From an uncultured Verrucomicrobiales bacterium (GTDB lineage: Bacteria; Verrucomicrobiota; Verrucomicrobiia; Verrucomicrobiales; Verrucomicrobiaceae), in contig CAXBNA010000040.1 in NCBI GenBank assembly GCA_963976915.1, positions 1 to 34,465 on the forward strand: a stretch of DNA of 34,465 nucleotides. The letters run 5' to 3'. Of the stretch, positions 9,463-34,465 are shown piece after piece (the stretch's first letter is position 1; the number at the start of each line of letters is the position of its first letter). The notes beneath the pieces are model-generated. The model worked only from the letters and a program-made list of their open reading frames with translations, ran no database searches and was not told where the DNA came from. Both the position numbers and the translations under genes were made by a program.

Positions 9463-9547
9463 AAGGGAGGCTGGACGAATGACAACCCACGCGCAGTGGG
9501 CAACCCAGACGGCTCAACAGCGCTGGTGAGAACGAACAAGCGGAACT

Positions 9548-9573
9548 GAAAAATCCACGGAAAATTCGTGGAA
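9548..9573 (-). terminator. Rho-independent terminator immediately after the PiT transporter stop codon.
   Basis: On the minus strand: tccacg aatttt cgtgga followed by TTTTT. On the plus strand this is gaaaaa tccacggaaaattcgtgga, 9548-9572. The stop codon is at 9576-9578. Confidence 0.5.
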
Positions 9574-9575
9574 CC

Positions 9576-11165: not shown

Positions 11166-11398
11166 TTGAGCGGCTGACGGTCATGCTGGCAAGCCTGCTT
11201 GTGTGACGATTTTGCGTGGCGGAAGAGGCTTTATCGACTGCAGGGAGTGTTTGATTTTGTGGACTCAGGCCGTCATGGGGAGGAATCCCAACGTCTGGAC
11301 TCGGACTGGCTGGAAACGCCTTTTTGGTGGCATGGCGACGACAGGTGCTTGCGGTCGTTGTGGAACTGCGACCAGATGGCCAGCCTGGCCGCCTTTCC

Positions 11399-12079
11399 AT
11401 GAAACCTTTTCTCACCCTTGCCACCACCCAAACCGCCGACGGAACCGAGCTGTCACTGCACTCGCATGACATCCACTACTACTTGCGGGCGAATCGGCAG
11501 CCCCTGATGGGCACGAATGCGTCGGAGTCCGAGAAGGTGTTGGCAAGTCTCGCCTGCGAGCGGTTGCGGGGAAAAAAGGGAGTCCGGGTCTTGATCGGGG
11601 GGCTGGGATTTGGATTTAGCCTTCGACGCGTTCTCGAGACCGTCGGGCCGGACGCGACGGTGCATGTGGCGGAGCTGCTGCCCGAAGTGGTGGCGTGGAA
11701 TCGCGAGCACTTGGGCGAAGTGAACGGGAAGCTTCTGGACGATCCGCGGGTGGAGATTTTTGAGGAGGATGTGTTTGAGGTCCTGAAGCGTGGAGCGGAC
11801 GCACCCTACGACGCGATTCTGCTGGACGTGGACAATGGCCCCGCCGCGATGGTGCAGGATCAAAACGCGCGGCTCTACGACTTCCACGGGTTCAACGTCG
11901 TCAAACCGGCGATGGCTCCGAAAGCGGTGGTCGCCTATTGGTCCGCCAAGGATGATCGCTTCTTCGTGCGCCGCCTTGCCCGCAACGGCTTTGACGTGAA
12001 GGTGGTGCCTGCCAAGGCCTATCCGCAGGCCAAGCGCTGCGCGCACCGCATCTTCGTGGTGACGAAGATGGCGTTGTGA
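11399..12079 (+). CDS. Spermidine/spermine synthase-like protein (short polyamine aminopropyltransferase-fold, class I MTase-like).
   Basis: Motifs VLIGGLGFGFSLRRVLE (glycine-rich loop) and YDAILLDVDNGPAAM (resembles the spermidine synthase D-x-D-x-xDP region). Start re-set to the ATG MKPFLTL at 11399; the 11324 start in the track is a TTG. Confidence 0.6.
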   Translation: MKPFLTLATTQTADGTELSLHSHDIHYYLRANRQPLMGTNASESEKVLASLACERLRGKKGVRVLIGGLGFGFSLRRVLETVGPDATVHVAELLPEVVAWNREHLGEVNGKLLDDPRVEIFEEDVFEVLKRGADAPYDAILLDVDNGPAAMVQDQNARLYDFHGFNVVKPAMAPKAVVAYWSAKDDRFFVRRLARNGFDVKVVPAKAYPQAKRCAHRIFVVTKMAL

Positions 12080-12113
12080 TTCAAGCCAGGTGTGAGTGAG
12101 GCCGAACGGGCCT

Positions 12114-13307
12114 TCATGACAGCAGCACGCGAAGACTGGACTGCTCCAGCGCCGCGTGGATCTCCGGGAACTTCCGGGTTTCGGTGAACCCGTCCATCGC
12201 TTGGCGGAGCGCATCGACGAACATCTCCGATTGCTCCTCCACGGGCAGGCTGAGAGTCTCAGGGAACTGGGCGTCGAGGAGCATGGTGCCGAAGTCTGTC
12301 GGCTCGACCAGATCTTCCGCCCACCCAAGGACGGTCTCGGTCGGTGACGCATCTGGAAAACGATCCGCCACGAGGGCGAGGATGTCGGCACGGGTGGGCA
12401 CATTCATCAGAAGTGCGAGGAAGAAGCGATGGTCTGGATCCTCGATGCGGTTGCGCATTCTGGCCAGGGTGTCGCGTCGGAGGCATTCCGCCAGCGTCGA
12501 GGGGACACCCGTTGCGAGTTCACCGTGCTTGTTTTGGAAGGCCTTCAGGATGGGTTCCCACTCGTCAAGATCCTGAAGGCGGCCCATGGCGTGTTGCAGC
12601 GTATAGAATCCCCGTTCGAAATCGAGGCTCTCGATCATCTCGTTCACGAGATCGGCGTAGTCGGGATGATCGATGGTCTCCAGCACGTCGAGGAGCTGCT
12701 TGCGGCGCATCGTCAGCGTGTCCGCATAGACGGGATCGATGGCGAGGTGAGGTGGCAGATAGTTGAACTGTGGCCCGGTCCCGGGATCGTTTTGCGTTCG
12801 AACCACCACCGTGACCGAGGGGGAGTCGAGGTGGAAAAGGGAGTGGATGCAGCCCCGGCCGGAGGTGATCGGCACGGTGCGACCCGTCTCAAGAAGCTCA
12901 ATGTGCTTCATCTGAACTTCGCCAATGCGAAGGTGCGGCGTGATCGGCCGGGCGTTTTTGAAATCGAACTCCGCGTGGATGCTCGATCCGGACATCACAT
13001 GAAACGCGCCGGAGAATTCATGCTGATGGATGTCGGTGGTGCCTTCGAGCCAAAAGAGAATCTGGATGTAGAACCGCGGATGATCAAAGGCGATCAGCTC
13101 GGGCTGGCCAAAGCCTGACTGACTTTGAAAGGGCTGATCGTCTTCGAGCAGGAATTCACGAACCAGCTCCTCAAGATCGACATGCTCGAATGGAGGGGCG
13201 TCGTCGATGGCGGACCGGGCAATTTCGGGGAACGCCTCCAGCGAGAAATTCGTCTGCTTCCATTGCTGGAGGACGGTGCGCCCGAGTTGGTTGAAGAAAG
13301 AATTCAT
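12114..13307 (-). CDS. Hypothetical protein, 397 aa. It may have an N-terminal cupin-like metal-binding region.
   Basis: Long ORF with protein-like composition. The HQHEFSGAFHVMSGSSIHAEFDF segment resembles a cupin H-x-H...G motif. No firm family assignment is possible from the sequence alone. Confidence 0.55.
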   Translation of the reverse strand: MNSFFNQLGRTVLQQWKQTNFSLEAFPEIARSAIDDAPPFEHVDLEELVREFLLEDDQPFQSQSGFGQPELIAFDHPRFYIQILFWLEGTTDIHQHEFSGAFHVMSGSSIHAEFDFKNARPITPHLRIGEVQMKHIELLETGRTVPITSGRGCIHSLFHLDSPSVTVVVRTQNDPGTGPQFNYLPPHLAIDPVYADTLTMRRKQLLDVLETIDHPDYADLVNEMIESLDFERGFYTLQHAMGRLQDLDEWEPILKAFQNKHGELATGVPSTLAECLRRDTLARMRNRIEDPDHRFFLALLMNVPTRADILALVADRFPDASPTETVLGWAEDLVEPTDFGTMLLDAQFPETLSLPVEEQSEMFVDALRQAMDGFTETRKFPEIHAALEQSSLRVLLS

Positions 13308-20323: not shown

Positions 20324-22438
20324 ATGATCGACATCCCTCCCTCTCCACTTGCCTTTTTTGGCATCTTCGAAAGCCTCGGCATGGGGCTCGTAGCCACCTT
20401 GTTCACGCTTGGCTTTGGTCTCCTGATGTTCATCTTTGCGGCGTTTGCGCGCTTTTTCCGCAAAGTGCAGCAGGGGCAAGCCATCGTGAGAAACGGGATG
20501 GGCGGTACCCGGGTGACGTTCAACGGGATGATGGTCTACCCGGTCGTTCACCAGGCCGAGTACATGGATATCTCACTCAAAAGAGTCGAGATCGAGCGCC
20601 AGGGCGCAGAAGGCCTGATCTGTCAGGACAACATTCGAGCCGACATCAAAGTGGCTTTCTTTGTCCGTGTGAACAAGACGGAGGACGATGTGCTGCGGGT
20701 GGCTCAGACCGTGGGCACTCAGCGTGCATCGAGCGTCGATACGATGCGCACCCTGTTTGACGCCAAGTTTTCCGAGGCACTCAAAACGGTCGGCAAGCGT
20801 TTTGACTTCGTGCAGCTCTACAATGAGCGGGATCATTTCAAGGACGCGATCCTGAAGGTGATCGGCACCGACCTCAACGGCTTCACGCTGGACGACTGTG
20901 CCATCGACTTTCTGGAACAGACGGCGGTTGAGAATCTGGATCCGGACAACATTCTGGATGCGGAAGGGATCAAGAAAATCACCGAACTGACAGCTTCCCA
21001 AGCGAAGCTGTCGAACAACATCCAGCGGGACAAGGAGAAGGTCATCAAGAAGCAGGATGTGGAGGCCCGCGAGGCGATCCTCGAGCTGGAGCGCCAACTT
21101 TCCGAGACGGAAGCCAAGCAACTCCGCGATGTGGAGTCGGTCCAAGCGCGCGAACAAGCGGAGACGATCAAGGTGAAGGAAGAGGAGCGCATGAAGTCCG
21201 AGCGGGCACGCATCGCGACGGACGAAGACCTGGCTGTGGCGACGGAGAATATGGAGCGCCAGGTACTCGTGGCGCAGCGCAACAAGGAGCGCACAGACGC
21301 CATCGAGGTCGAGCGCGTTGAGCGGGATCGGATGCTGGAGCAGATCGAACGCGAGCGCGCCACGACGCTCAAGAGCATCGAGAAGGACAAGGCGGTCGAG
21401 ATCGAGCAAAAGAACATTCAGGAAGTCATCAAGGAGCGTGTGGCTCTGGAGAAGACCGTGGTGATCGAGCAGCAGAAGATCAAAGACACGGAGGCCTTCG
21501 CCACGGCGGATCGCGAGAAGCAGGTGGCTGTGACCTTGGCGGAAAAATCCGCTCAAGAAGTGGTCATTCAGAAGATCAAGGAGGCGGAAGCGCAGAAGCA
21601 GGCCGCGCAGTTCAAGGCGGAAGAGGACGCCTTCAATCAAACGAAGGCGGCGGAAGCCTCGAAGCAAGCTGCCGAACTGAGAGCGCAGGAGATGATCACG
21701 CTGGCGGAAGCTCGTCAGGATGCGGCGGCACGCGAATCGCAGGCCGAGAAACTCATGGCGGAAGCGGTGACGGCTCAAGCGGCAGCCCAGGGCCTGGGTC
21801 AGGCTCAGGTGCTCGTCGCCAATGCGGATGCCTCGCAGAAGCAGGGGCATGTCGATGCGGAGATTCTCCAGCTCAAGCTGGCGGCCGAAGCGGATGGCAT
21901 CCAGAAAAAGGCGGAAGCGATGAAGGTCCTCGAAGAGGCCGGGCGCGAGCACGAAGAGTTCAAGCTCCAGCTCGACAAGGAGAAAGAGATCGCCATCAAG
22001 CAGATCGACATCCAGAAGGACATCGCCACGCAGCAGGCCATCGTGCTCGGCGAGGCGCTCAAGAGTGCCAAGATCGAGATTGTGGGAGGCGAGAGCCAGT
22101 TCTTCGACAAGATCACTCAGGCGATTGGAAACGGTCGTGCGGTGGATCGTTTAGTCGCCAACAGCGAGGTGCTCAGCGATGTGAAGGAAACCTTCTTCAA
22201 TGGAGATCCCGATTACTTCAAAGGGCAGTTTCGCGGGCTGATGGACCAGTTCAGCTTCTCGACTGAGGACCTCAAAAACCTCACGGTTTCCGCCGTGCTG
22301 GGCAAGATGATGGGCCTCAATCCTGATGCCGGTCTCATGAGCAAGCTCCAGGGCATGATGGGCGCGGCCAACCGCTTCGGTCTGGGTGACAAGCCAGCCG
22401 ACGCATTGATCGCGGCCGTTGCCAAAGGGAAGAAGTGA
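20324..22438 (+). CDS. yqiK: Flotillin-family SPFH/Band-7 protein (YqiK-like), long form with an extended E/A/K-rich coiled coil.
   Basis: 704 aa. N-terminal TM region, then an SPFH domain: AIVRNGMGGTRVTFNGMMVYPVVHQAEYMDISLKRVEIER...ADIKVAFFVRVNKTEDDVLRVAQTVG. This aligns by eye to E. coli YqiK (AFVRTGLGGQKVVMSGGAIVMPIFH...LKLEVSR...VDVVVAFFVRVKP). A long EA-repeat (flotillin) region follows. Start set to the ATG at 20324 (MIDIPP). Confidence 0.9.
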   Translation: MIDIPPSPLAFFGIFESLGMGLVATLFTLGFGLLMFIFAAFARFFRKVQQGQAIVRNGMGGTRVTFNGMMVYPVVHQAEYMDISLKRVEIERQGAEGLICQDNIRADIKVAFFVRVNKTEDDVLRVAQTVGTQRASSVDTMRTLFDAKFSEALKTVGKRFDFVQLYNERDHFKDAILKVIGTDLNGFTLDDCAIDFLEQTAVENLDPDNILDAEGIKKITELTASQAKLSNNIQRDKEKVIKKQDVEAREAILELERQLSETEAKQLRDVESVQAREQAETIKVKEEERMKSERARIATDEDLAVATENMERQVLVAQRNKERTDAIEVERVERDRMLEQIERERATTLKSIEKDKAVEIEQKNIQEVIKERVALEKTVVIEQQKIKDTEAFATADREKQVAVTLAEKSAQEVVIQKIKEAEAQKQAAQFKAEEDAFNQTKAAEASKQAAELRAQEMITLAEARQDAAARESQAEKLMAEAVTAQAAAQGLGQAQVLVANADASQKQGHVDAEILQLKLAAEADGIQKKAEAMKVLEEAGREHEEFKLQLDKEKEIAIKQIDIQKDIATQQAIVLGEALKSAKIEIVGGESQFFDKITQAIGNGRAVDRLVANSEVLSDVKETFFNGDPDYFKGQFRGLMDQFSFSTEDLKNLTVSAVLGKMMGLNPDAGLMSKLQGMMGAANRFGLGDKPADALIAAVAKGKK

Positions 22439-22510
22439 CCTGAGCCATTCCTGACGTCCTGTTCTGATTCCGACCTGACTTCTCGGGTATCGGGATCGGG
22501 ACGAGGATGA

Positions 22511-25500
22511 ATGAGGAACCCGAATCCGATGTCCGATACCCCGCCATCCGCCCAACTCGAAGCCGGTGCTTACGAGGTCATCCGCAAGCGCCTCGATGCG
22601 CAGGGCGAGGATCTGCGTTCGCGGCTGGATCAGCTCAACGAGGCGCGGAAGTCGATCTTCGGCGGGGTGGAGACGCAGCTGCTCTCCACGGCGCGGCTGA
22701 CGACGGAGCACAACTGCGTGCCGCGTGACATGGCGACGATTGGGGCCAAGCGGTTCGTGTTTGGCTACAATGTCACGTTGGGGCTGAAGAGTCACCTTGC
22801 GGCGGAGGATGTTTTTTCGACCTACGACTACGATCCCTCGGACCACAGCTTCCACGCCAACAAGGACGGCTTGCTGGAGGACAAGCGTTTTGTCGAGGAC
22901 TTTGACTACCTCTACAAGTACTACAAGAACGCCTTCTTCCTGCGGTTTCATCGCAGCGGGCATGCGGTGTATTTCGTCTTCCAAGTCGGGCGGGATGTGG
23001 GCGAGGTGAAGGCCTTTAAGTGGCTGCTGGACAAAGATGCAGGGACGCTGCGCTACGAAGGCAATCGCTTCGATCATGAGATCGCCATGCCGGATCCACA
23101 CGAGTTTGTGTGGCGAAAGGCGACGCATGACATGTATCGCCACGGCACGTATCCGCATGTGTCCATCGAGGATCGTGTGTTTGTGGAGACGGTGGGCGGG
23201 GATCTGACGGTGAAGGTGGAGGACAACACGGCCTCGGGTGCCGGGATCTACTCCGAGCCGGTGGAGAACGGAGACCAGATCCTCGACGATGCGCAGATCC
23301 AATACGCGATTGTTGGCAATCTGATTCTACTGAAGGTGCTGCCCTACCAGGAGAAGCAGTGGCGGCATCTGGTCTTCAATGAACGCACGCAGGACGTGGT
23401 GAGGATCGACGCCCTCGAGGAGTCCTGCCAGCTTTTGCCTGATGATCATGGCATTGTGTTTCCGCGCGGCTACGTGTTGCAAACCGGCGGAATGAAGGTG
23501 CTGGACACCGGGCTGCCCGAGATGCAGTTCGAGCGAAAGGTGACCTCGGCCAATGGGGAGGACACGCTCTATGTCTTCCATCACATCGAGACGGGCACCT
23601 ACCTCTTGCTCTCCTACAATTTGGTGGAGCAGGAGATGGCAGCGCCGACGATCAGCCATGGCTTTGCGATGTTTCCGAATGGTGAGCTGATCGTTCTGAA
23701 TGCCGAGGAAGAGGCGCGGAAGCATCACTCGATTCAAGTCTGGCAAACACCGTTTGTCGCGGAGCAGCAGGCGGTCGATGAACATCGCGACAGCTTGTTG
23801 GGCAAGCTCGGGAATGCGGAGATCGTGCGCTGCATGGCGGAGTGCCGTGGCATCCTGACCTTGCTGGGGAAAGAAGACAGCTACTCGGGATTGTACGTGG
23901 AGCTGGTCCGTCAAGCGGGCGACATCGCCGACACGTATTTCTGGCTGGACAAGGCGGAAGCCCATGGCCTGCGGGGCACGCTGACGAAGATCAAGGACGC
24001 TGCAGAAGCGGCGCTGGGTGAGTTTGAAAAGGTGCGTCGTCTCCGGGCGGCGGCCAAGACGGAGGTCGCATCATTGACGGAGGCCGCGAACAAGGCGGTG
24101 CGTGAGGCCGAGAGCGCGAGCTTTGATGACGTGCAGAGTTTTGTGAAGTCGCTCGCCACCTTGCGTGAGCTTCGCGGCCGGATCATCGCTGCCCAGGAGA
24201 TCCGGTACATCGATGAAGAAGCGCTGAAGGCGTTGGATGCAAAGGTGGCGGAAGCGGCGGAACTGGTGGGCGGTCGTTGCACGGAGTTTTTGCTGCTGCC
24301 TGAGGCGCTGGCACCCTACGATCAGGCCGTTACCAAGCAGCGGGCGGCTTTGGAGAAAGTGGCCAAGGTCACGGAGGCGGAGGAACTGGACGCGCAACTG
24401 CGGTCAACGAGTGAGGAACTGGAACTCCTGATCAGCGTGGTGAGTTCTCTCAAAATCCGTGATGCGACCGAGACGACTCGGATCACGGAAAGCATCTCCG
24501 GCCAGTTTGCGCAGCTCAATCAGGTGCGCTCTCGGGTGAAGGCGCGGCGTGATGAGTTGGCGCAGACGGAGGGTGAGTCTGAGTTTTACGCGCAGCTCAA
24601 TTTGCTGAAGCAGGTGGTGATCAATCAGGTCGAACTCTGCGATACGGCAGAGAAATGCGATGATGCCCTGACGCGGACGCTGGTGCGGATCGAGGAACTG
24701 GAGGGACGCTTTGGAGACTTTGAGGGATTTGCGGAGGAACTGATTCGTCGACGTGAGGAAACGCAATCGGCGTTTGATGCACGCCGACAGCAACTCGTCG
24801 AGACGCGGAATCGCCGCACTCAGGCTCTGGTCCAGGCGGCGGACCGGGTGCTGGCGAGCATTCGCAATCGTCTGAACACTCTGGCCACGCCGGAGGAGGT
24901 GCACTCGTATTTGGCCTCGGCTGCGATGGCGGCGAAGGCGCGGGATTTGATCGCCGATCTTCGGGACCTTGGCGACCCGGTGCGTGCGGATGAGATTCAG
25001 ACACGGCTGAAGACCCTGAGCGAGGGAGCGGTGAAGCAGATTCGCGACAAGGCGGATCTGTTTGTGGAAGGCGGCGACGTCATCAAGCTCGGGCCTCATG
25101 CCTTTTCAGTGAATCGGCAACCGCTGGATCTGACGCTGGTGCAACGGGAAGGGGCGTTGTTTTTCCATCTCACTGGAACGCGCTATTCGGAAGCAGTCCA
25201 GGATGAGGTGCTGGAGCAGCTGCGCCCGGTGTGGCCTTTGGAATCCAGTGCGGAGTCGCCGGGGGTCTATCGCGGCGAGTATCTTGCTCATATTTGGGTG
25301 GCGCATCTGGCGACCCAAGGGCAGGAGGCCTTGGACGCTTTTGTGGCGCAGGATGTCGAGGCGAGGCAGGGTGTGATTCGGGATTTCATGGCGGAGCGGT
25401 TTGCCGAAGGCTACACGAAAGGCGTTCATGATCATGATGCGGCCCGCATCGCTCTGCCTCTGGCGGAGCTTCGCGGGCGATTGGGACGCCTTCGTCACGC

Positions 25501-27664
25501 GCCTGTGGTTCGTGGCTGGGCATTGCTGCTTTGGAAACTGGTTCCCGAGGGCCCCAAGAAGAACGCGATGGCTGCGCGGTTGCAGGGGCAGGGAAGCCGG
25601 TCTCTGGTTTTTGGGGTGGCGGCCCATTCCGACGCAGGTGATCCGCGATTGCGGGCATTGCTCGAACGGGTTGTGGCCGATGCGCAGGTTTCGATGCCGG
25701 AGGAGGTCTCGCTGGCCGTGGTGGCTGCCTGTCTCACCGACGAATTGCAGGGACTCACCAGCAAGCATTCCGAACTGCCTCTGACGCGGTCTGCGGAGGC
25801 CTCGGAGCTTGCGCGAAGCTTTGGGAAGTTGCTGACCGCGAAACGGGCGGCGACGGAGTTTCATGAACTGCGTCAGCGCTTAGAAGAAGATCCCGTGGCG
25901 GAGTTTGAGCTGATTTTGGATTGGCTCGACGCGGCTCATCCCGAGGCGGGCGAAAGCATTCGCTCCGAGGCTGCGGGTCTGCTCATTTATGGAGAAGTCT
26001 CGGCTCATGGTGTGGAGGAGGTCGTGACTCAGGTCGAGATTGAAGGTCTTGTGGGCGCCCATTCGCAGATCGAGGGTGGAAAGCTCCGGCTGGACTACCA
26101 CGAGTTTCAGTCGCGTCTGCAGCATCATGAGCGGGAGATTGTTCCTCAGTTCCGGGCGATGCAGGATCGGAAGCATGCGCTGATTCAGAAACGCAGGGCG
26201 GAGCTGAGGTTGGAAGAGTTTCGTCCCGGGATGCTGAGTTCGTTCGTGCGAAATCGGCTCATCGATCAGGTCTATCTGCCGATCATCGGAGCGAATTTGG
26301 CAAAGCAACTCGGAGGGGTGGGGGCGGATACGCGCACGGACCGGATGGGCATGTTGATGCTGATTTCACCACCAGGATACGGGAAGACGACGTTGATCGA
26401 GTATGTGGCGAATCGCCTGGGCATGGCGATGGTGAAGATCAATGGGCCGGCCATCGGGCATCAGGTCACCTCGCTAGATCCGGCCGAAGCTCCCAACGCA
26501 AGTGCACGTCAGGAAATCGAGAAGCTCAATCTGGCCTTCGAGATGGGCGACAACGTGATGATCTACCTGGATGACATCCAGCACTGCAATGCTGAGCTTC
26601 TTCAGAAATTCATCCCGCTCTGCGATGGACAGCGCCGCATTGAGGGGGTGTTTCAGGGCGATGCCCGGACCTATGATCTTCGGGGCCGGAAGGTGGCTGT
26701 CGTGATGGCGGGGAACCCGTATACCGAGGTCGGCGGAAAATTCCAAGTGCCAGACATGCTGGCCAACCGAGCAGATACTTACAATCTGGGCGACATCCTC
26801 GGTGGTCACGACCATGACTTCAAGGCGAGCTACATTGAGAACTGCCTGACGAGCAATCGCTCACTTTCACGGATCGCAGCTCGCAGTCACAAGGACACAT
26901 TGGCGGTGATGAAAATCGCAGAGACAGGAAATCGCGAGGGCATTGAGTTTGAGGCCAATCACCAGGCCGACGAGATGGAGGAAGCCATCGCGGTTATGGG
27001 GCATCTGTTGCGCGTTCGGGAGGTCATTTTGCGAGTGAATCAGGAGTACATCCGTTCCGCAGCCACTGAGGAGGCGTTCCGCACAGAGCCGGCATTCAAG
27101 CTTCAGGGGTCCTACCGCAACATGAATCGACTCGCGGAAAAGGTGCAGCCACTGATGACGGCAGACGAGATCGAATCGTTGATCGAAGACCACTATCGCA
27201 GCGAGTCACAGACGCTGAGCAAAGCCTCGGAAGCCAACCTTCTGAAGTGGAAAGAACTGACCGGAAAGCTCTCTGAACCTGAAGCGGCGCGATGGGGCGA
27301 CATTCGCAAGACCTTCAGCCGGAATCTTCTCACTGGCGGTGGCGGAGACAATGATCCAGTGACGCGGATCGGCGGGTTCATGAATGCGTTTACGGTCGGG
27401 CTTGAGCGGATCGAGTCCACCCTCGAGAAAGCGCGAATGGATAGGGCTGCTCCAGCCACGCTCGCGGACGTCACGGTGGAGAAACTGGAGTCGATCATCG
27501 CGAGCCTGCGGGCAGTGCCAGTCAATGTGGAGATCAAGGTGCAGCCGGTGGAGCAGAGCTTGGGTCCAGCAGGTCCTGCCAACGATGGGCTTCCTGTCGA
27601 AGTCGAGTCCGGGGTGGTTCAGCCGGTTGACCCCAAGGTCACGCCCTCAAAGAAGAAAAAGTGA
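22511..27664 (+). CDS. Giant (1717 aa) multidomain protein with a MoxR/AAA_5-type P-loop ATPase module near the C-terminus. The rest of the protein cannot be assigned to a family.
   Basis: Continuous ORF. The ATG at 22511 is preceded by gaggatga (SD-like). Walker A MLISPPGYGKTTLIEY (GYGKTT = 26375-26392, ~aa 1289). Walker B NVMIYLDDIQHC (DD = 26570-26575). Sensor-1 region KVAVVMAGNPYTE, then QVPDMLANRADTYNL (MoxR-like NP...LPEA.LDRF pattern). N-terminal ~470 aa look globular and aromatic-rich. Residues ~480-900 are alpha-helical, EARL-rich and coiled-coil-like. The C-terminus ends in a Lys tail, PSKKKK. No TM helices are evident. Confidence 0.85.
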   Translation: MRNPNPMSDTPPSAQLEAGAYEVIRKRLDAQGEDLRSRLDQLNEARKSIFGGVETQLLSTARLTTEHNCVPRDMATIGAKRFVFGYNVTLGLKSHLAAEDVFSTYDYDPSDHSFHANKDGLLEDKRFVEDFDYLYKYYKNAFFLRFHRSGHAVYFVFQVGRDVGEVKAFKWLLDKDAGTLRYEGNRFDHEIAMPDPHEFVWRKATHDMYRHGTYPHVSIEDRVFVETVGGDLTVKVEDNTASGAGIYSEPVENGDQILDDAQIQYAIVGNLILLKVLPYQEKQWRHLVFNERTQDVVRIDALEESCQLLPDDHGIVFPRGYVLQTGGMKVLDTGLPEMQFERKVTSANGEDTLYVFHHIETGTYLLLSYNLVEQEMAAPTISHGFAMFPNGELIVLNAEEEARKHHSIQVWQTPFVAEQQAVDEHRDSLLGKLGNAEIVRCMAECRGILTLLGKEDSYSGLYVELVRQAGDIADTYFWLDKAEAHGLRGTLTKIKDAAEAALGEFEKVRRLRAAAKTEVASLTEAANKAVREAESASFDDVQSFVKSLATLRELRGRIIAAQEIRYIDEEALKALDAKVAEAAELVGGRCTEFLLLPEALAPYDQAVTKQRAALEKVAKVTEAEELDAQLRSTSEELELLISVVSSLKIRDATETTRITESISGQFAQLNQVRSRVKARRDELAQTEGESEFYAQLNLLKQVVINQVELCDTAEKCDDALTRTLVRIEELEGRFGDFEGFAEELIRRREETQSAFDARRQQLVETRNRRTQALVQAADRVLASIRNRLNTLATPEEVHSYLASAAMAAKARDLIADLRDLGDPVRADEIQTRLKTLSEGAVKQIRDKADLFVEGGDVIKLGPHAFSVNRQPLDLTLVQREGALFFHLTGTRYSEAVQDEVLEQLRPVWPLESSAESPGVYRGEYLAHIWVAHLATQGQEALDAFVAQDVEARQGVIRDFMAERFAEGYTKGVHDHDAARIALPLAELRGRLGRLRHAPVVRGWALLLWKLVPEGPKKNAMAARLQGQGSRSLVFGVAAHSDAGDPRLRALLERVVADAQVSMPEEVSLAVVAACLTDELQGLTSKHSELPLTRSAEASELARSFGKLLTAKRAATEFHELRQRLEEDPVAEFELILDWLDAAHPEAGESIRSEAAGLLIYGEVSAHGVEEVVTQVEIEGLVGAHSQIEGGKLRLDYHEFQSRLQHHEREIVPQFRAMQDRKHALIQKRRAELRLEEFRPGMLSSFVRNRLIDQVYLPIIGANLAKQLGGVGADTRTDRMGMLMLISPPGYGKTTLIEYVANRLGMAMVKINGPAIGHQVTSLDPAEAPNASARQEIEKLNLAFEMGDNVMIYLDDIQHCNAELLQKFIPLCDGQRRIEGVFQGDARTYDLRGRKVAVVMAGNPYTEVGGKFQVPDMLANRADTYNLGDILGGHDHDFKASYIENCLTSNRSLSRIAARSHKDTLAVMKIAETGNREGIEFEANHQADEMEEAIAVMGHLLRVREVILRVNQEYIRSAATEEAFRTEPAFKLQGSYRNMNRLAEKVQPLMTADEIESLIEDHYRSESQTLSKASEANLLKWKELTGKLSEPEAARWGDIRKTFSRNLLTGGGGDNDPVTRIGGFMNAFTVGLERIESTLEKARMDRAAPATLADVTVEKLESIIASLRAVPVNVEIKVQPVEQSLGPAGPANDGLPVEVESGVVQPVDPKVTPSKKKK

Positions 27665-27735
27665 AAGGCTTGGAAGGCTCAGATCCGGGGGCTCAAAGCA
27701 CTTGCAGAGCCTCGGATACGTCGCCTGAGTGAGGC

Positions 27736-28479
27736 ATGAGAATTGTGCTCCTGATCGGCCTCCTCGTGCTTCCAATCCTCGCTGAGGCTCAGGTGGAGAC
27801 GGCGCATCACCGCGCCGTTTACAAGGAAATCAACGACCGCGAAGAATCGTTTCGAAAGGTGACGGGAACGTTCGAGGATGAGCCGACCGTTTTTGCGCTG
27901 ACGGGTTGGTTTGACGGGCGGGAGCTGAAGAAAATCGTGGCTCGGTCTGGCGATGACGGCGGGGGCTTTGACGAGTACTATTTTGAGAACGAGCGACCAC
28001 TCTTCGTTTTCAGCACTTACGAAAAAGGGGCGACGGGCGAGCGCGTGGAAAATCGACTGTACTTCAAAGATGGGTCGATCTTCAAGTGGCTGACCACGGA
28101 CAAGGCCGTCGGTGCCCTTCATTCAGAAGACTATCAATCCGAGACCGAGCGGCTGAATGCAAACTGCGCCGCCTTTGTGGCAGCGTTGACGGGGAAGCCT
28201 GTCCCCAAGGTGACGTCCAAAGTCACCTTGGGTGTTTTTCTTGGGATCGAGGAAGGCGATTACTTTCACTGGATGATGCGGTCTGCGGGTGGCGAGGAGA
28301 CGTCCTTCTTCATTCTTCATCCAGATCCAGCCGTGGAGCGGGTTCTCGATGACCCAGACACATTTTTCGGCAGAACCTGCAAGGTGACGTGGAAGACATC
28401 CAAACAAAACATTCCTGAAGCTGCCGGCACCATGGAGCTGGATCAAATCTTGAGCGTCGAGTGGTCGACGGAGAAGTAG
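27736..28479 (+). CDS. Secreted hypothetical protein (247 aa) with an N-terminal signal peptide.
   Basis: MRIVLLIGLLVLPILAEAQ signal peptide. Protein-like composition. 72 nt downstream of the giant ATPase gene on the same strand. GTGAGG lies 3 nt before the ATG. Confidence 0.6.
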   Translation: MRIVLLIGLLVLPILAEAQVETAHHRAVYKEINDREESFRKVTGTFEDEPTVFALTGWFDGRELKKIVARSGDDGGGFDEYYFENERPLFVFSTYEKGATGERVENRLYFKDGSIFKWLTTDKAVGALHSEDYQSETERLNANCAAFVAALTGKPVPKVTSKVTLGVFLGIEEGDYFHWMMRSAGGEETSFFILHPDPAVERVLDDPDTFFGRTCKVTWKTSKQNIPEAAGTMELDQILSVEWSTEK

Positions 28480-28762
28480 CGCCGCGTTCGAGTTTGAACC
28501 AATCTGACACAGTCATGAGGAGCCAAAAACAAAACAACCGGTCGCCACGGCCATTCAAAAACCAGTCCTCTGGACGTGATTGGTCAGGCAACAGGGAAGG
28601 GGGAGGGTTCATTCCAGGCGCCAAAAAGACTCGGCCTGTAAAGAAGTTGGACCCTCCGAAGCCCTCCGAGCGTGGTCAGAATTCCGACGGGGCTTGTGCG
28701 GAGAGCTAGGCGATTCGTGATAGAGGTGGCATGGCTTGGCGTTCGAAGTCCACCCCCTCTTC

Positions 28763-29461
28763 ATGAACCCCGTTGCTGCCATCTTTGCCCTCCTGCTGGC
28801 CTCGTCTTGGACTCAAGCCGGGGAGGTTCCCGTGGGTGATCCTGACCTCCCGCATCCTTTGGATCTGAGCTTCGTGGAGAGCTTGGTCGCGGCCTCACCC
28901 TTCACCCGGACCGTGAGTCTGGAAGACTCATTTCAACTGACTGGGATTGCCTTCTTTGACGGGCATCCGGTCGCTACGATTCTGAACCGGGAGACCCAGG
29001 AACGATTTGTGGTCTCTGAAGAACCGAACGCTCAGGGTTGGACCCTCGTGGCAGCGACCACAGGCGCGAACATTGGAAGCTCAAGGGTGGAGATGCGGGT
29101 TGGCACTGAGGCGCTGACCTTGCACTACGGTGGGCAGCAGTTGTCGCCCGGACCTGATGGCAAGGCTGGATCGAAGAAGATGTATGCCTCATCGAAAAAG
29201 TCTGGCGGCAAGACGCATCCCTCTTCGTTTCTTGGAGATGGAGGACGGGAACGGTACGAGTCCCTCTCATCCGAGGGACGGAGCCACTTCAAGGAGCTGG
29301 TCCGGGCGCATATGGAAAAGCACCCGGAACTCAGTCCTGAACAGTCTGCGGACTACGCCCGAAAGGTTTTTGCGAAGATTCAGAGCGCGGATGTCTCCAA
29401 TTCCGGGGATGGCCCAGCACCTTCCAAGGCATCGAAACCCCCGAAGAAGAGGCAGGCGTAG
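28763..29461 (+). CDS. Secreted hypothetical protein (~232 aa) with a signal peptide and a Lys/Ser-rich low-complexity C-terminal half.
   Basis: Start set to ATG 28763 (MNPVAAIFALLLASSWTQAGE). The track ORF starts at 28736. The C-terminal part (KKMYASSKKSGGKTHPSS...PSKASKPPKKRQA) is basic and disordered. Confidence 0.5.
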   Translation: MNPVAAIFALLLASSWTQAGEVPVGDPDLPHPLDLSFVESLVAASPFTRTVSLEDSFQLTGIAFFDGHPVATILNRETQERFVVSEEPNAQGWTLVAATTGANIGSSRVEMRVGTEALTLHYGGQQLSPGPDGKAGSKKMYASSKKSGGKTHPSSFLGDGGRERYESLSSEGRSHFKELVRAHMEKHPELSPEQSADYARKVFAKIQSADVSNSGDGPAPSKASKPPKKRQA

Positions 29462-29549
29462 AGGCGTGTGTCCGGATCCCGGGGCAGTTTCTCTCGCACG
29501 CTCCATCTCTCCACGATCTCGGCTCGAATTCTGCTTTCCTCCACTCGCC

Positions 29550-29876
29550 ATGTACCCTGACACCATTCCTTGGAAGGTTCTCTCCGCCACCGCCAGCGTT
29601 GGCGCATTCACTCCCGAGTGGGAACTCGATCAGGTGCCTCTGTCATCGGAAGAAACCCGGAGTTTCTCCATCGTTATCGACTTCGCGACGTCTTTTGAAG
29701 GCGTGCCAGTCATCCACCTCGGTCTGACGGGCTTTGATGCGGATCAGCGTGACAGCACTCGATTGAGTCTTTCTGCGGTGGACATCACGCCGCATGGATT
29801 CACCGCCGTGGTTTCCACCTGGGCCACGACGAGGCTCTACTCGGTGGAGTTCAACTGGCTGGCGATCGGGGCCTAG
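29550..29876 (+). CDS. Small H-type lectin domain protein (108 aa).
   Basis: MYPDTIPWKVLSATASVGAFTPEWELDQVPLSSEETRSFSIVIDFATSFEGVPVIHLGLTGFDADQRDSTRLSLSAVDITPHGFTAVVSTWATTRLYSVEFNWLAIGA. The pattern F..PP.V...L...D.....R....A..IT..GF......W.D..LY.....W.AIG matches the H-type lectin (PF09458) consensus. Confidence 0.6.
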   Translation: MYPDTIPWKVLSATASVGAFTPEWELDQVPLSSEETRSFSIVIDFATSFEGVPVIHLGLTGFDADQRDSTRLSLSAVDITPHGFTAVVSTWATTRLYSVEFNWLAIGA

Positions 29877-30342
29877 CGTCTGGCGACTTGGGCGGCCACT
29901 CCACGCCGTCGAGTTCCTTCGGGAGTTGGGTCGGGTCTTCCGGATAGATCAGGGATAGGTCCATGTCGGAGTGGGAGCCTTTGAGAAATTCCAATTCTTC
30001 GGGCGCGCCGATGACGAGCCACAGAACTTCATCGTCCGTGTCATTGAACACTTGGCGCAGTTGATCCGGACCGACGTGCACACCGCCGTGTTTTGGGACG
30101 GTGAGAGACTGGTCGCCCACGCGGATTCTACCTGTGCCTTCGAGCACAAAATAGAACTCCTCCGACCGGATGTGCTTGTGAAGCGTGTTGGCGCTCTTCG
30201 GCGGCATCCGCCACAGCCGTGCGCCCATGTTCTCGCTTCCCGTGCGTTCCAAAAAGTCCGCATTCGGGATCTTCATCAAGTTGGAGGGCCTCCAAACGAG
30301 ATCGTCCGGCGTGATGAGCTGATGGCCTTGAAAAGAGTTCAT
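29851..30342 (-). CDS. Cupin-domain protein.
   Basis: LHKHIRSEEFYFVLEGTGRIRVGDQSLTVPKHGGVHVGPDQLRQVFN. This is a classic two-motif cupin (H.H...E...G ... G..H..P....H). It converges on the lectin gene with a 26-nt overlap. Confidence 0.75.
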   Translation of the reverse strand: MNSFQGHQLITPDDLVWRPSNLMKIPNADFLERTGSENMGARLWRMPPKSANTLHKHIRSEEFYFVLEGTGRIRVGDQSLTVPKHGGVHVGPDQLRQVFNDTDDEVLWLVIGAPEELEFLKGSHSDMDLSLIYPEDPTQLPKELDGVEWPPKSPDARPRSPAS

Positions 30343-30518
30343 GAATTCTGTGGAGAAGACCTACTGGCGCAGCTACTTCAGAGCTTCAAGAACCTCTTTA
30401 ACCCCTGCCAGGCTGACCTTGCGGCGTCGTTGTCATCCGGGTTGTTGAGCTGGGCGTAGTCTGGGTGGTTGTCCCAAAACTCCGGAACGGCGCACCTTGG
30501 AACCCCAATGGCACAGCC

Positions 30519-30944
30519 TTACTTGGCGGCCGAACTGGATTCCTGCTCGTCGGCATCGTCCGTCCTTGGATCAGGCGCACCGAGCATCACCCACGTGGTT
30601 AGCAGAGCAATCTCGATCTGGGGAAGTCGCTCGTCCGGGGGCATCATGTTGCTTGAGTTGCGACTGTGGATCGTCCGAATCAGGGAACTCTTTTTGAGGT
30701 TGTTGGGCACCACTGCCGGGCCGTGATCACCTCCCGTCATCCACCCATCCTTGGTGTCCAGCACCAAGCCGCCTTCGTCGATGCCCTCTTTCTCGGAGTG
30801 GCACTCAAAGCATCGACTTTCAAGAATCGGTAGGATCTGAGTCTGGAAGAACCTGGCTGGCTCGTACGAAGACGGCGTTTCCTCGTCCGCCCAAATGGGT
30901 GCCGATACCCACAGGCAGATGACAAGGATGGCCGAGACTCGCAT
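30519..30944 (-). CDS. Planctomycete-type cytochrome c domain protein (PSCyt1, PF07635), stand-alone, with a signal peptide.
   Basis: MRVSAILVICLWVSAPIWA signal peptide, then FFQTQILPILESRCFECHSEKEGIDEGGLVLDTKDGWMTGGDHGPAVVPNNLKKSSLIRTI...MPPDERLPQIEIALLTTWVMLGAP. This matches the PSCyt1 consensus (F...I.PIL...C..CH.......GGL.LD.......GG..GPAIVPG....S.L...I......MPP...L......L..W...GA) with a CxxCH haem site. Confidence 0.8.
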   Translation of the reverse strand: MRVSAILVICLWVSAPIWADEETPSSYEPARFFQTQILPILESRCFECHSEKEGIDEGGLVLDTKDGWMTGGDHGPAVVPNNLKKSSLIRTIHSRNSSNMMPPDERLPQIEIALLTTWVMLGAPDPRTDDADEQESSSAAK

Positions 30945-31122
30945 GCCAACTAAAACGATCCGCCACTCACCCTGTGTGCGGCGAATCTTGTGGGATTGTC
31001 AGCATCTCTTGGGCGGGGGATTTGCGGAGGCCTCGTCCGGGTCCAGCGTGGCGAACTTGATGATCAGCCGAAAGCCCCGGACCATTCGCATCGTTTCACG
31101 GGGCCAATCCACGGATCCACTC

Positions 31123-31797
31123 ATGAAAACTCCCTTTTGCCTTGCCGCTCTGCCCATCTTCGCGATGGCCGTCTTGCTCAATCCTGCCCTCCAGGCCGAC
31201 ACAAAGGAGTATCAATCGGAGTTGTTTGAGACCACCAAACTCGTCTATGAAGACAGCTTTGATGGTGGCGCGATCAATGCCGATTTTTGGGAGGTTCGCC
31301 AGAACACGACCTGGGAAGTGAAGGACGGGGTGCTTTTCGGAAGCGAGTCGTCCAAGGAGTTCCAAGCGATGAAGAAAGCGAGCAAGGACCCGTCCCACGC
31401 GGGTTTGAAGCCGGTGATGTGGCTCAAGAAGGTGCCGGAAAATTTCGTCTGCCAAATGCGCGTGCGCTACGATGCCACGGACTACCAGCGCGGCTTCCCA
31501 CTCCTCGACATCGGACACCACATTCACACGCTCAGCTTCAGCACGGAAGCCACCACCCTTGCGATCAAGAAAGACGTGGAGAAGATCGAGATCAAAGAGC
31601 CGCTATTTTCCCTCAACGAATGGCATGACGTGGTGATCGAGTTGAAGAAGGGCACGATCCTTCTGTCGATTGATGGCAAAAAACACCTCTTCGAGAGTGA
31701 AAACATCGACATGACCGGTCACGCCCAGATCGATTTCAAGGCGGTCGATTTCGGCACCTGCCAAATCGACGACATCAAGGTTTGGGAAGGGCAATAG
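31123..31797 (+). CDS. DUF1080 (3-keto-disaccharide hydrolase-like, LamG-like jelly-roll) secreted protein.
   Basis: Signal peptide MKTPFCLAALPIFAMAVLLNPALQA. ADFWEV...WEVKDGVLFG near the N-terminus and C-terminal ...FKAVDFGTCQIDDIKVWEGQ. This resembles the DUF1080 pattern (W......W...DG.L.G ... NI.V). Confidence 0.65.
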   Translation: MKTPFCLAALPIFAMAVLLNPALQADTKEYQSELFETTKLVYEDSFDGGAINADFWEVRQNTTWEVKDGVLFGSESSKEFQAMKKASKDPSHAGLKPVMWLKKVPENFVCQMRVRYDATDYQRGFPLLDIGHHIHTLSFSTEATTLAIKKDVEKIEIKEPLFSLNEWHDVVIELKKGTILLSIDGKKHLFESENIDMTGHAQIDFKAVDFGTCQIDDIKVWEGQ

Positions 31798-31893
31798 GGG
31801 CCGTGGGCCTTCCGGGAAGGTGGTCCTTTCCTTACGAGGGGCGGCGGTTTCGGTTTCCGGGGAAGACCTCGCCCCAGCGGGCAACCGCAGCGA

Positions 31894-32592
31894 TCAAGGC
31901 ACCTTCGCCTGCCAGATTTTCACGTCGTCGAAGTGGGCCGCGTTCCCGTTGACGGTGAAGTGCACGCTCTCCTTCGTGGGATGGGCGAGCCCGGGTGATT
32001 GGAGGTAGCCGATGGCTTCACCGTCGAGACTCACACGCATCTCGTCGCCAACCACTTCGATGGTCATGGCGTACCAGCGCTCCTGCTCAATGTCCGCCTT
32101 CACCGCGGCACCGCGTCCCACAATGAGCTTGTCGGCCGCTGCTTTTCTGGCTGGGTCCCGACGCATCTCGAAAATGTCGTTCCGCATCACGCCTTCCTTG
32201 TCGTCGCCCAGGCGAATCTGTTTCGCCGCCACCGCCACCCGGCAGATGTGTCCGGCGTGGGATCCTTTGTGATTCTTGTCGTCGAACACCACATTGAAAG
32301 TGGGAGAGCCTGCCAACTTGAACCGGAACGACACGATCACATCCTTCATCGGTACGTAAACCCGGCCGACTGAACCATGGTCATCCCGATCCTGCGTGGC
32401 GACCAGCACGCCGTCCGCGACCTTGAATCCGGGAATGATCACCTTCCAATCCCCCAACTCCGTCCGCTCAAAGTCATCGGAGAACATCAGTTCGCCCTTC
32501 TCGGCAAGCGGTCCCGGAACGACGACGTTTTCCGCGACGGTGAGGGTTGCGGCCGACGCGAGGAAAAAGGAGAGCAGGGTGTTTCGAATCAT
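31894..32592 (-). CDS. DUF1080-like secreted protein (second copy, divergent in sequence).
   Basis: Signal peptide MIRNTLLSFFLASAATLTVA. DWKVIIPGFKVADGVLVATQ ... AHFDDVKIWQAKVP. The architecture is the same as the neighbouring DUF1080 gene. Confidence 0.65.
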   Translation of the reverse strand: MIRNTLLSFFLASAATLTVAENVVVPGPLAEKGELMFSDDFERTELGDWKVIIPGFKVADGVLVATQDRDDHGSVGRVYVPMKDVIVSFRFKLAGSPTFNVVFDDKNHKGSHAGHICRVAVAAKQIRLGDDKEGVMRNDIFEMRRDPARKAAADKLIVGRGAAVKADIEQERWYAMTIEVVGDEMRVSLDGEAIGYLQSPGLAHPTKESVHFTVNGNAAHFDDVKIWQAKVP

Positions 32593-32730
32593 GATCTCCT
32601 GATCCTACGAGGTTGCAGGCGGCAAGACAATCTCTTCATCGAGGGCCAACTCACTTCAACCTGACCCGAGTGTAGAGGCAAGAACGGTAGGCCGCGGAGT
32701 TTTCGCAGCCATAGTGGACGGTTTTTCGTT
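32581..32730 (-). repeat. Leader/promoter copy A, upstream of the DUF1080 gene. It includes the first 4 codons, MIRN.
   Basis: ~85% identity over ~75 nt with 34276-34345: gtttcgaatcatgRtctSctRatcctacgaggttgcaggcKgca...actcttca. A second shared block, gtggacggtttt, sits 122 nt upstream of the ATG (32714-32725). Confidence 0.6.
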
Positions 32731-32835
32731 AGTTGCTGACAAAGTCGATGCGGGAGGCGTTTGGATCGAGTTTGAGCGAAGCGGTCCAGACGCCACGCCG
32801 ACCTCGCTTGCATCTGAACGCGTTGGCTTCCAGGC

Positions 32836-34287
32836 CTATCGGCTAATCGTCTGATAGCGTTCCGGTTTGCCGGGTGCTTCCTTTTTGGGTAGATGCTGGC
32901 GATGCTTCGCGAGAACGTCCGCAAACGTCTGATCCGAAGCGAGGTTCGTGTGATTCCACGGGTCGCTGTCGGCGTAAAGTTCTTCGAAGCCGTCGTGATA
33001 GCGGATGTAGCGAAATCCGGGCGTTCGGATCGCGTGGTTGCCGGGCCCCTCGGTCATCAGAGCGGGACGAGTCCACTCTGCGTTGGGGTCCTTGAGAAGA
33101 GGCACGAGCGATTGCCCATCATTCTCCGCTTTGGGAGGCAGGCCAGCCAACTCGACGAGCGTTGGGTAAATATCGACCAGGCTGACCGGTGTTTCACATA
33201 CGGAGCCGGGCTTCGCCACTCCGGGTGCGACAATGATGAAGGGGACATGGGTGGCCTTTTCCCAGAGAGTGAATTTCACCCCGCACTGCTTGTCGCCGAG
33301 GTGGTAGCCGTGGTCGGACCAGAGCACGATGATGGTGTTTTCCGCCCGACCGGTGGCATCCAGTTTGTCGAGCAGACGACCCACCATCTGATCGGCGTAA
33401 TCGGCGGCGGCTTGGTAGCATTGCACCATGCGATGAAGGGATTGGTTGGAATCCGGATCCGCAGCGGTGGTCTCGTCGTAGACAAAAGATTCCTTGTCCG
33501 ACATTCGAATGCCGACCGGTCCAACGTCCTGCATGTCATCCTCCGGCATTGGTGGAAGCATTACCTTTTCTTTCGGGTAGCGTTCAAAGGTCGCCGCATC
33601 GGCGTAGAACGGCAGGTGGGGATTGAAGATGCCCGCCGCGAGAAAGAGCGGGGCGTCCTGCTTCTCCTCCATCCTTGACTCGACCCATTCACACATATCG
33701 ACATCGATCATCTTCTGATCGTGCACGCCCCAGTCGAAGGCGAGGCCGGAGAGCCGGGTCTTGTCCTCGATTCGGTAGCCGTTGTAGTTCTGGTTTTTGC
33801 CCGGACCGCGGATGGGAAGTTTCTTGAAGAACTTCTGGAACGAGGGGCGGTCTTTCGGCTCCGCTCCGGTGTCGCCGTGATGATAAATCTTGCCGGCACC
33901 GCGGGTCGTGTAGCCGCCCTGTTGGGCGAAATATTCCGGCAGAGAGATGGCATTCGGGATCTTGTCCCGCCAGGCCTGCCCGTTGGAATAGACGCCGGAT
34001 GTGGTCGGACGCAGTCCGGTCATGATGGCGGTGCGCGACGGGTTGCAACCGGCCGAGGCGCAATAGGCACGGCTGAAAAAAGTGCCGCGCGCGGCCAGAC
34101 GCTGGAGGCTCGGTGTCTGGATCGGGTTGGTCTCGTCGAAGAGCGTTGTCCAGTCGTTCATGTCGTCGATGGCGATGAAGAGAACGTTTGGCTTCTCGGC
34201 CGCGGATACAGCGAGACTCCAACACGAAAGCATCGCGCCGAGGCACAGGGATGCAGAGAGAAAGGGGCGCAAAGAGTTTCGAATCAT
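32836..34287 (-). CDS. Sulfatase (formylglycine-dependent arylsulfatase family), secreted.
   Basis: Signal peptide MIRNSLRPFLSASLCLGAMLSCWSLAVSA. PNVLFIAIDDMNDW, the sulfatase signature C-x-P-S-R as YCASAGCNPSRTAIMTG, and IIVLWSDHGYHLGDK. Confidence 0.9.
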   Translation of the reverse strand: MIRNSLRPFLSASLCLGAMLSCWSLAVSAAEKPNVLFIAIDDMNDWTTLFDETNPIQTPSLQRLAARGTFFSRAYCASAGCNPSRTAIMTGLRPTTSGVYSNGQAWRDKIPNAISLPEYFAQQGGYTTRGAGKIYHHGDTGAEPKDRPSFQKFFKKLPIRGPGKNQNYNGYRIEDKTRLSGLAFDWGVHDQKMIDVDMCEWVESRMEEKQDAPLFLAAGIFNPHLPFYADAATFERYPKEKVMLPPMPEDDMQDVGPVGIRMSDKESFVYDETTAADPDSNQSLHRMVQCYQAAADYADQMVGRLLDKLDATGRAENTIIVLWSDHGYHLGDKQCGVKFTLWEKATHVPFIIVAPGVAKPGSVCETPVSLVDIYPTLVELAGLPPKAENDGQSLVPLLKDPNAEWTRPALMTEGPGNHAIRTPGFRYIRYHDGFEELYADSDPWNHTNLASDQTFADVLAKHRQHLPKKEAPGKPERYQTISR

Positions 34288-34430
34288 GGTCTGCTAATCC
34301 TACGAGGTTGCAGGCTGCACTACAAACTCTTCAGCGAGGTCCATCGTGCTTCTTACCTTACCCGGATGTAGGGACAGAAAAGGTATGTCGCGTAGGCTTC
34401 GCCGCCGTTTGTGGACGGTTTTCCGGTGAT
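34276..34430 (-). repeat. Leader/promoter copy B, upstream of the sulfatase gene. It includes the first 4 codons, MIRN.
   Basis: Matches 32581-32730. The shared core atcctacgaggttgcaggc is at 34298-34316, and the distal block gtggacggtttt is at 34411-34422, 124 nt upstream of the ATG. Confidence 0.6.
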
Positions 34431-34465
34431 TGGTGAAGAATTTCATGCGTGTGGCGTGTGGCTTT

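Follow-up and report, generated by a model that had tools for sequence, protein, structure and literature searches.

Why do two unrelated enzyme genes begin alike? In a 34,465-nt contig from an uncultured Verrucomicrobiales bacterium (CAXBNA010000040.1; the whole stretch is referred to below as the window), we studied two genes on the minus strand, one encoding a Cys-type sulfatase (32836-34287) and the other a DUF1080/3-keto-disaccharide-hydrolase-like protein (31894-32592). Their upstream regions align and both open reading frames (ORFs) open with ATGATTCGAAAC (MIRN). The original prediction took this shared module to be a portable regulatory cassette that serves secreted hydrolase genes. 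The explanation that we favor, at a probability of about three in four, is a duplicated gene head: the fossil 3' end of a gene that we call X, a spacer with a probable promoter, and the start of the DUF1080 signal peptide, which together now head a relocated sulfatase.

The shared 5' region and its distal block

In what follows, the module 5' of DUF1080 is copy 3 and the module 5' of the sulfatase is copy 2. A 19-mer, GCCTGCAACCTCGTAGGAT, had exactly two matches in the window, both on the minus strand (32602-32620 and 34297-34315), against a shuffle expectation of 0.01. The two copies were 75% identical across 204 nt (blastn, E=4e-38), weaker similarity extended about 290 nt 5' of the genes, and the similarity ran into both genes as far as codon 13, with 28 of 39 nt identical in the first 13 codons (MIRNTLLSFFLAS of DUF1080, 32554-32592, and MIRNSLRPFLSAS of the sulfatase, 34249-34287, both minus strand). 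The common 5' region with its MIRN start is therefore real, and the homologous unit comprises about 200-290 nt of upstream sequence together with the first 13 codons, exceeding the roughly 130 nt first reported. The second conserved element, GAAAACCGTCCAC in copy 2 (34411-34423) and AAAAACCGTCCAC in copy 3 (32714-32726), also lies on the minus strand. Taken alone the 13-mer GAAAACCGTCCAC was not beyond chance, since two or more matches occurred in 31 of 100 shuffles.

Copy 2 runs past the window end at 34465. Its continuation was found on a 281-kb TARA Oceans metagenome scaffold (L001) that encodes both proteins and occurs in three samples; window positions 22836-34465 are the exact reverse complement of L001 9823-21452 (11,630 nt), and copy 2 continues on L001 9793-9935. 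On this scaffold four genes follow one another on one strand: X (L001 7233-8639, 468 amino acids, no Pfam match), a Mala_s_1-like gene (8697-9677), the sulfatase (10001-11452) and DUF1080 (11696-12394). Gene X is intact and lies 1.3 kb past the window end. A repeat search placed a partial third copy of the distal part of the module at L001 8495-8632, within the 3' end of X, so that the two full copies and the parental X 3' end all fall inside 3.3 kb.

The distal block had been read as a possible operator. The X family has at least 719 homologues (64-86% identity) in metagenome-assembled genomes of marine Verrucomicrobiota and Planctomycetota, and its C-terminus, IDFFTNHRKTVHYGGKAYATYLSCPYTRV, is kept as protein in 60 homologue C-termini among the matches listed. 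GAAAACCGTCCAC codes for (R)KTVH within the NHRKTVH of this C-terminus, and the C-termini listed exclude an X family without ..FFTNHRKTVH..; since the C-terminus is conserved as protein, GAAAACCGTCCAC is coding sequence and not an operator. Translated searches (tblastn) gave the same picture for both modules. X proteins matched copy 3 at 32830-32657 (minus strand) with 58-63% identity over 46-59 amino acids (E=4e-13 to 2e-14), and the best-supported match (P0002, 59 amino acids, E=2e-14) contained an in-frame stop (TAA). They matched copy 2 at 34464-34411 and 34409-34359 (minus strand) in differing frames (E about 1e-6 to 5e-8), the frame being broken by a +1 frameshift.

Each upstream module thus starts with what remains of an X gene, namely its last ~60 codons in decayed form and its stop codon. 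The copy 3 relic (32651-32830, minus strand; 63% identity over 46 amino acids, E=4e-13) holds the last ~59 codons and the stop of an X-family gene, reads EANAFRCKRGRRGVWTASLKLDPNASRIDFVSN, stop, RKTVHYGCENSAAYRSCLYTRVRLK, stop, and contains AAAAACCGTCCAC; its match begins 6 nt past the sulfatase stop codon. The copy 2 relic (34353-34465, minus strand), cut by the window end, reads KPHATRMKFFTNHRKTVH, then after the +1 frameshift NGGEAYATYLFCPYIRVR and a stop, and contains GAAAACCGTCCAC. The relics span X residues from about 410 to 468 and nothing else of the gene. Between each relic stop codon and the downstream ATG lies a spacer, of 58 nt in copy 3 (32593-32650, the former X-DUF1080 intergenic sequence) and of 65 nt in copy 2 (34288-34352), again on the minus strand. 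In addition, 30 nt of copy 2 (34411-34440) match intact X without a mismatch (shuffle P=0.00035), possibly as a result of gene conversion across the 1.3 kb that separates the two sequences.

These relics resemble the known 3'-end pseudogene remnants that insertions or replacements leave behind in intergenic DNA, in their C-terminal similarity to an intact family, their stop codon or frameshift, the loss of the rest of the gene, and their position at the site of a relative's intact gene (contig L017, described below). Unlike usual gene remnants, this one was duplicated a second time along with the promoter and start codon that follow it, which is why it is seen twice and passes for a conserved upstream motif. 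As for X itself, sequence searches of Pfam, NCBIfam and PDB returned no family. The AlphaFold model of this secreted protein (pLDDT 72) gave weak fold matches only, and bears a faint likeness to CE15 glucuronoyl esterases (alpha/beta hydrolase) with a beta-sandwich domain at the C-terminus.

Proposed origin of the chimeric sulfatase gene

If the distal block is the tail of X, how did it come to stand in front of DUF1080? In the outgroup contig L017, DUF1080 begins 70 nt past the end of an intact X (X 74% identical, DUF1080 79%). Because X and DUF1080 are direct neighbors there, the X-DUF1080 adjacency is ancestral. DUF1080 (232 amino acids, Pfam PF06439) would thus be the original owner of the 5' module, and comparison of the gene orders indicates that the Mala_s_1-like gene came between X and DUF1080 in the window lineage, leaving the old X tail on DUF1080.

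A strong hairpin followed by a T-run (AACAGGGTATG..CATACCCTGTT-GCTTTTG) was also seen by eye, unscored, after X in the outgroup contig (L017 2862-2931). Its T-tract overlaps, again by eye, the -35 element of the DUF1080 promoter candidate, forming a compact terminator/promoter junction.

A syntenic sister population (contigs L003, L012-L016 and L018, all from SCHR19-1 samples) has the order X, Mala_s_1, one module, DUF1080, and does not have the 483-amino-acid sulfatase. An apparent absence of X from L014 was rejected, as a 100-N scaffolding gap lies at this point (L014 4821-4920, at the X 3' end). At four-fold sites L001 and L003 diverged by 28% in X, 21% in Mala_s_1 and 17% in DUF1080, falling to 6-10% a few kb downstream; the L001/L003 locus is a recombination mosaic. 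The two also differ in gene content, L003 lacking an abhydrolase gene (L001 5756-7075) and having an additional gene of 936 amino acids.

The sulfatase gene has a different history from the sequence that precedes it. DNA homology to its orthologues on L023 and L024 (blastn, 75-76% identity, about 1335 nt) was limited to L001 10109-11439, which corresponds to the mature-domain body (window 32849-34179, minus strand; Pfam PF00884). The sulfatase orthologues (77-83% identity) bear other N-termini and longer C-termini, and a MIRN start was present in none of 53 sulfatase homologue N-termini among the matches listed, while DUF1080 orthologues at 95-97% identity do begin with MIRN. The orthologues sit in clusters of GH32 and sulfatase genes with no X or DUF1080 nearby. 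At its C-terminus the protein is cut at ..RYQT|ISR-stop where close homologues run on ..YQTLDNEASKQPKK. The MIRN start, the homology confined to the mature domain, the foreign clusters and the cut C-terminus together show that the sulfatase gene is chimeric, a relocated sulfatase body fused to the 5' region and about 13 codons of DUF1080.

A derivation of the terminal ISR-stop from the ..ISEL.. of X looked suggestive by eye but had no statistical support, and we do not claim it. The pairing of abundant GH32 glycoside hydrolases with sulfatases in the L023 and L024 clusters is unusual, and might point to the substrate of the sulfatase.

Such a gene is like other chimeric genes that arise when segmental duplication captures a 5' end, in that a relocated body is fused in frame to a resident promoter, start codon and first codons. 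Unlike in generic 5'-end capture, the join falls within a Sec signal peptide, so that only the n-region and early h-region are borrowed. We propose that X once stood directly upstream of DUF1080, that the two were separated when a Mala_s_1-like gene came between them, and that about 60 decayed codons of X remained. The old X-DUF1080 spacer of 58-65 nt would carry a sigma-70-type core promoter, TTGTnn-N17-TAGGAT, and the third part of the unit would be the beginning (~13 codons) of the sequence that encodes the DUF1080 signal peptide. A copy of this unit of about 290-330 nt would then have been placed ahead of a sulfatase mature-domain coding region from another genomic context, and the chimeric sulfatase gene would owe to DUF1080 its promoter, its AUG and the n-region (positively charged) of its signal peptide. 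The capture may have occurred by tandem duplication and replacement or by single-crossover integration of a circle. An event of this kind is known, and it is an ordinary evolutionary footprint.

The duplication was not very recent, as the copies differ by about 25% while orthologous spacers differ by 6%. Between copies 2 and 3 the identity was 76% in the spacer and 74% in the first codons; between copy 3 and its L003 orthologue the corresponding values were 94% and 97%. Either the duplication is older than the L001/L003 split, the sister having lost the sulfatase, or the chimera was acquired from a more distant relative.

Could the repeat be an artefact of assembly or scaffolding? The window does end inside copy 2, 25 nt past the 30-nt exact repeat, and the L014 gap falls at the X 3' end; the repeat shared with intact X seems to break assemblies. 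However, the copies are only ~75% identical, each with its own indels, and the 281-kb scaffold spans all three copies, was found in three samples, and matches the window exactly over 11,630 nt. The copy divergence and the recurrence of the scaffold argue that this is not an assembly duplication, and we regard a false repeat as next to impossible.

If the duplicated head is the correct explanation, the locus is a clean and datable case of an acquired sulfatase that gained its promoter, start codon and export-signal start from a resident gene of a polysaccharide-degradation cluster. Its chief lesson is one of caution: a conserved upstream motif common to unrelated genes can be a neighbor's coding fossil carried along by local duplication.

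A candidate promoter beside the start codon

What might the proximal part of the module do? All copies contain TTGTnn-N17-TAGGAT ending 9 nt ahead of the ATG, and the proximal core with the start can be written as TTGTnnN17TAGGAT-N9-ATGATTCG. The sigma-70-like candidate is TTGTCT-N17-TAGGAT in copy 3 (32602-32630, minus strand), where it includes the 19-mer, and TTGTAG-N17-TAGGAT in copy 2 (34297-34325, minus strand). This 29-nt stretch was identical at 26 of 29 positions between the copies as compared to 65% elsewhere (Fisher p=0.006). Across four sequences the TTG and the TAGGAT did not vary; variation was greatest in the 9 nt that precede the ATG. The AGGAG of copy 3 was not retained in copy 2 or in the sister variant L018, and no Shine-Dalgarno sequence was conserved.

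More distant loci showed the same architecture. The looser pattern TTGnnn-N17-TAnnnT was found 9 nt before the ATG in copies 2 and 3, L003, L018 and L019 (TTGCAT-N17-TAAAGT), and 6 nt before it in L017 (TTGCTT-N17-TAGCAT); apart from this pattern the L017 and L019 spacers are unrelated. With a background of 1.3e-4 per nt in these loci, the chance of a match so placed is about 8e-4 per gene. In loci of the Planctomycetes-Verrucomicrobia-Chlamydiae (PVC) group, 10 of about 26 such motifs sit 2-9 nt before the start of a long ORF, mostly the called start codon. A TANNNT at -16 to -9 occurred in 9 of 45 called genes, as compared to 4 in a control window.

A TANNNT some 12 bp ahead of the start codon is a published signature of leaderless genes (Zheng et al. 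2011, PMC3160421); that survey makes no mention of Planctomycetes. In the present sequences the first T of TANNNT is at -15 in copies 2 and 3, L003, L018 and L019 and at -12 in L017, so that a TANNNT lies about 10-15 nt before the start at a position conserved among orthologues, the placement looked for on the basis of that survey (PMC3160421). The resemblance to leaderless or TA-led genes (PMC3160421) consists in this -10-like box 12-15 nt before the start and in the lack of a conserved Shine-Dalgarno sequence. Unlike in typical leaderless genes (PMC3160421), the first T at -15 (-12 in L017) implies a leader of 1-3 nt. These data suggest that the proximal core is a sigma-70-type promoter giving rise to an almost leaderless mRNA. 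With 9 nt between the core and the ATG, this mRNA probably starts at the start codon or 1-3 nt before it, with a leader of 0-3 nt. The two genes would, if the promoter is active and the transcript near-leaderless, be similarly expressed. When a gene is leaderless, its promoter and AUG work as a single unit; this would account for the presence of the start codon in the duplicated segment.

Several points weigh against this explanation. The hexamers are weak, with 8 of 12 and 7 of 12 consensus matches and an N17 spacer, and fall under the stricter threshold of a consensus scan; a consensus promoter and terminator scan of L001 8300-12600 returned no promoter above threshold and no intergenic terminator. 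The 9-nt gap sets the first T of TANNNT at -15 where -12 is typical. Since X, Mala_s_1, the sulfatase and DUF1080 lie on one strand with no predicted terminator, read-through could make the copies dispensable. The 94% identity of the L001 and L003 spacers is near the local neutral divergence (6-17% at four-fold sites), so that the conservation need not reflect purifying selection. Finally, the order of events may have been either an old duplication with loss in the sister or the import of a pre-formed chimera.

Some of these points would fit a simpler account, in which the repeat is an inert duplication scar, a by-product of the sulfatase insertion, with transcription reading through from a promoter 5' of X or of Mala_s_1 and with a functionless TTG..TAGGAT. 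The single orientation of the four genes with no terminator-like site predicted in the intergenic regions, the weak hexamers and the near-neutral L001/L003 conservation all agree with it. On the other hand, the promoter architecture recurs at a like distance from the ATG in L017 and L019 despite their unrelated spacers, which by chance is expected at the low rate given above, and the promoter-like 29 nt are more conserved between the copies than the remainder. In L017, moreover, the terminator-like hairpin and T-run after X would require that DUF1080 has its own promoter. An inert scar is therefore unlikely, though it is the alternative to the duplicated head that we take most seriously.

The original prediction proposed a dispersed promoter, operator or 5' untranslated region element, dependent on an extracytoplasmic function (ECF) sigma factor or acting as a riboregulatory leader, that co-regulates many secreted hydrolase genes. 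In its favor, the module is common to two unrelated enzymes, an ECF sigma/FecR pair lies about 7 kb upstream (L001 1087-2747), and the 19-mer holds an imperfect inverted repeat, CCTGC-N6-GTAGG. The likeness to ECF sigma promoters of the GGAAC-N16-17-CGT type is nevertheless one of context only (exported enzymes and the nearby ECF/FecR pair), as their motif is absent from all module copies: neither GGAAC-N15-18-CGT nor the relaxed AAC-N15-18-CGT was found in copy 2, copy 3 or L003. Searches of the module for sigma-54 and Bacteroidetes -7 motifs gave no match either. A riboregulatory leader fared no better. Fold z-scores of both leaders and the L003 orthologue ranged from -0.45 to +0.57, which is no unusual stability relative to shuffled sequences, and the variant L018 alters the 19-mer at two positions and breaks the small CCUGC/GUAGG hairpin, a U-A pair of its 5 bp becoming G-A with no compensating change, although the sequences are few for a covariation analysis. 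Rfam 15 gave no match at the gathering threshold in the whole window, and at E<=10 on 32500-34465 only two chance matches, both elsewhere.

Portability is contradicted by the distribution of the module. The distal block is, as described above, decayed coding sequence, and no copy was present upstream of other genes in the 44 kb read. There were no terminal inverted repeats in or around either copy. Matches in 185,579 species genomes and in 241 million metagenome records from JGI were limited to chance ones of 19-26 nt. The exact 19-mer (with R at the variable site) had four matches among GTDB species genomes, in Rhizobium, Mesorhizobium and Bradyrhizobium (Hyphomicrobiales) and in a Solibacteraceae, and three chance matches in the JGI metagenomes; the source organism is evidently outside both collections. 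We found nothing relevant in the literature on motifs upstream of DUF1080 or sulfatase genes. A dispersed cassette of this kind is thus very improbable. What stands of the original prediction is a 5' region homologous by descent, start codon included, with a promoter-like core. A recent local duplication with the motif absent elsewhere had been named as the finding that would speak against a cassette, and a local duplication with no further copies is largely what we observe, except that it is not recent.

A broader proposal can be built on the duplicated head, although it is speculative and we consider it quite unlikely: many secreted-enzyme genes would be leaderless in these bacteria, with promoter, AUG and n-region forming an indivisible expression-and-export head; short segmental duplications of the head could recurrently plug newly acquired sulfatases and hydrolases into regulation that is already in place, the present locus being one instance, and the relic part might add regulatory sequence. 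Further TTGnnn-N16-18-TAnnnT motifs 2-9 nt before long-ORF or called starts were seen at window 1087-1116 (minus strand), L001 5586-5613 (minus), L004 4703-4730 (minus), L017 3687-3714, and L020 6466-6494 and 1470-1498 (minus). In the NHL gene of L001 the motif points to a start that lies 14 codons further downstream than the called start. The distribution of such motifs hints that near-leaderless transcripts may be common in these marine Verrucomicrobiota and Planctomycetota lineages.

The surrounding gene cluster

About 7 kb further upstream on the scaffold, at L001 1087-4526, the genes for the ECF sigma factor and for a FecR-like anti-sigma protein are divergent from a second sulfatase gene (529 amino acids). 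Together with the abhydrolase (glucuronoyl esterase-like), NHL, Mala_s_1-like and DUF1080 genes, they look like a sulfated-glycan utilization cluster. Within the window, a gene at 30895-31797 (plus strand), convergent to DUF1080, encodes a secreted protein of 224 amino acids with no Pfam match; the sequence (..WEVKDGVL..IDDIKVWEG) looks similar, by eye, to the DUF1080 fold family. Farther from these genes, positions 21016-24383 hold short direct-repeat families with many GAAGATCAAGGAGGCGGAAG-like units.

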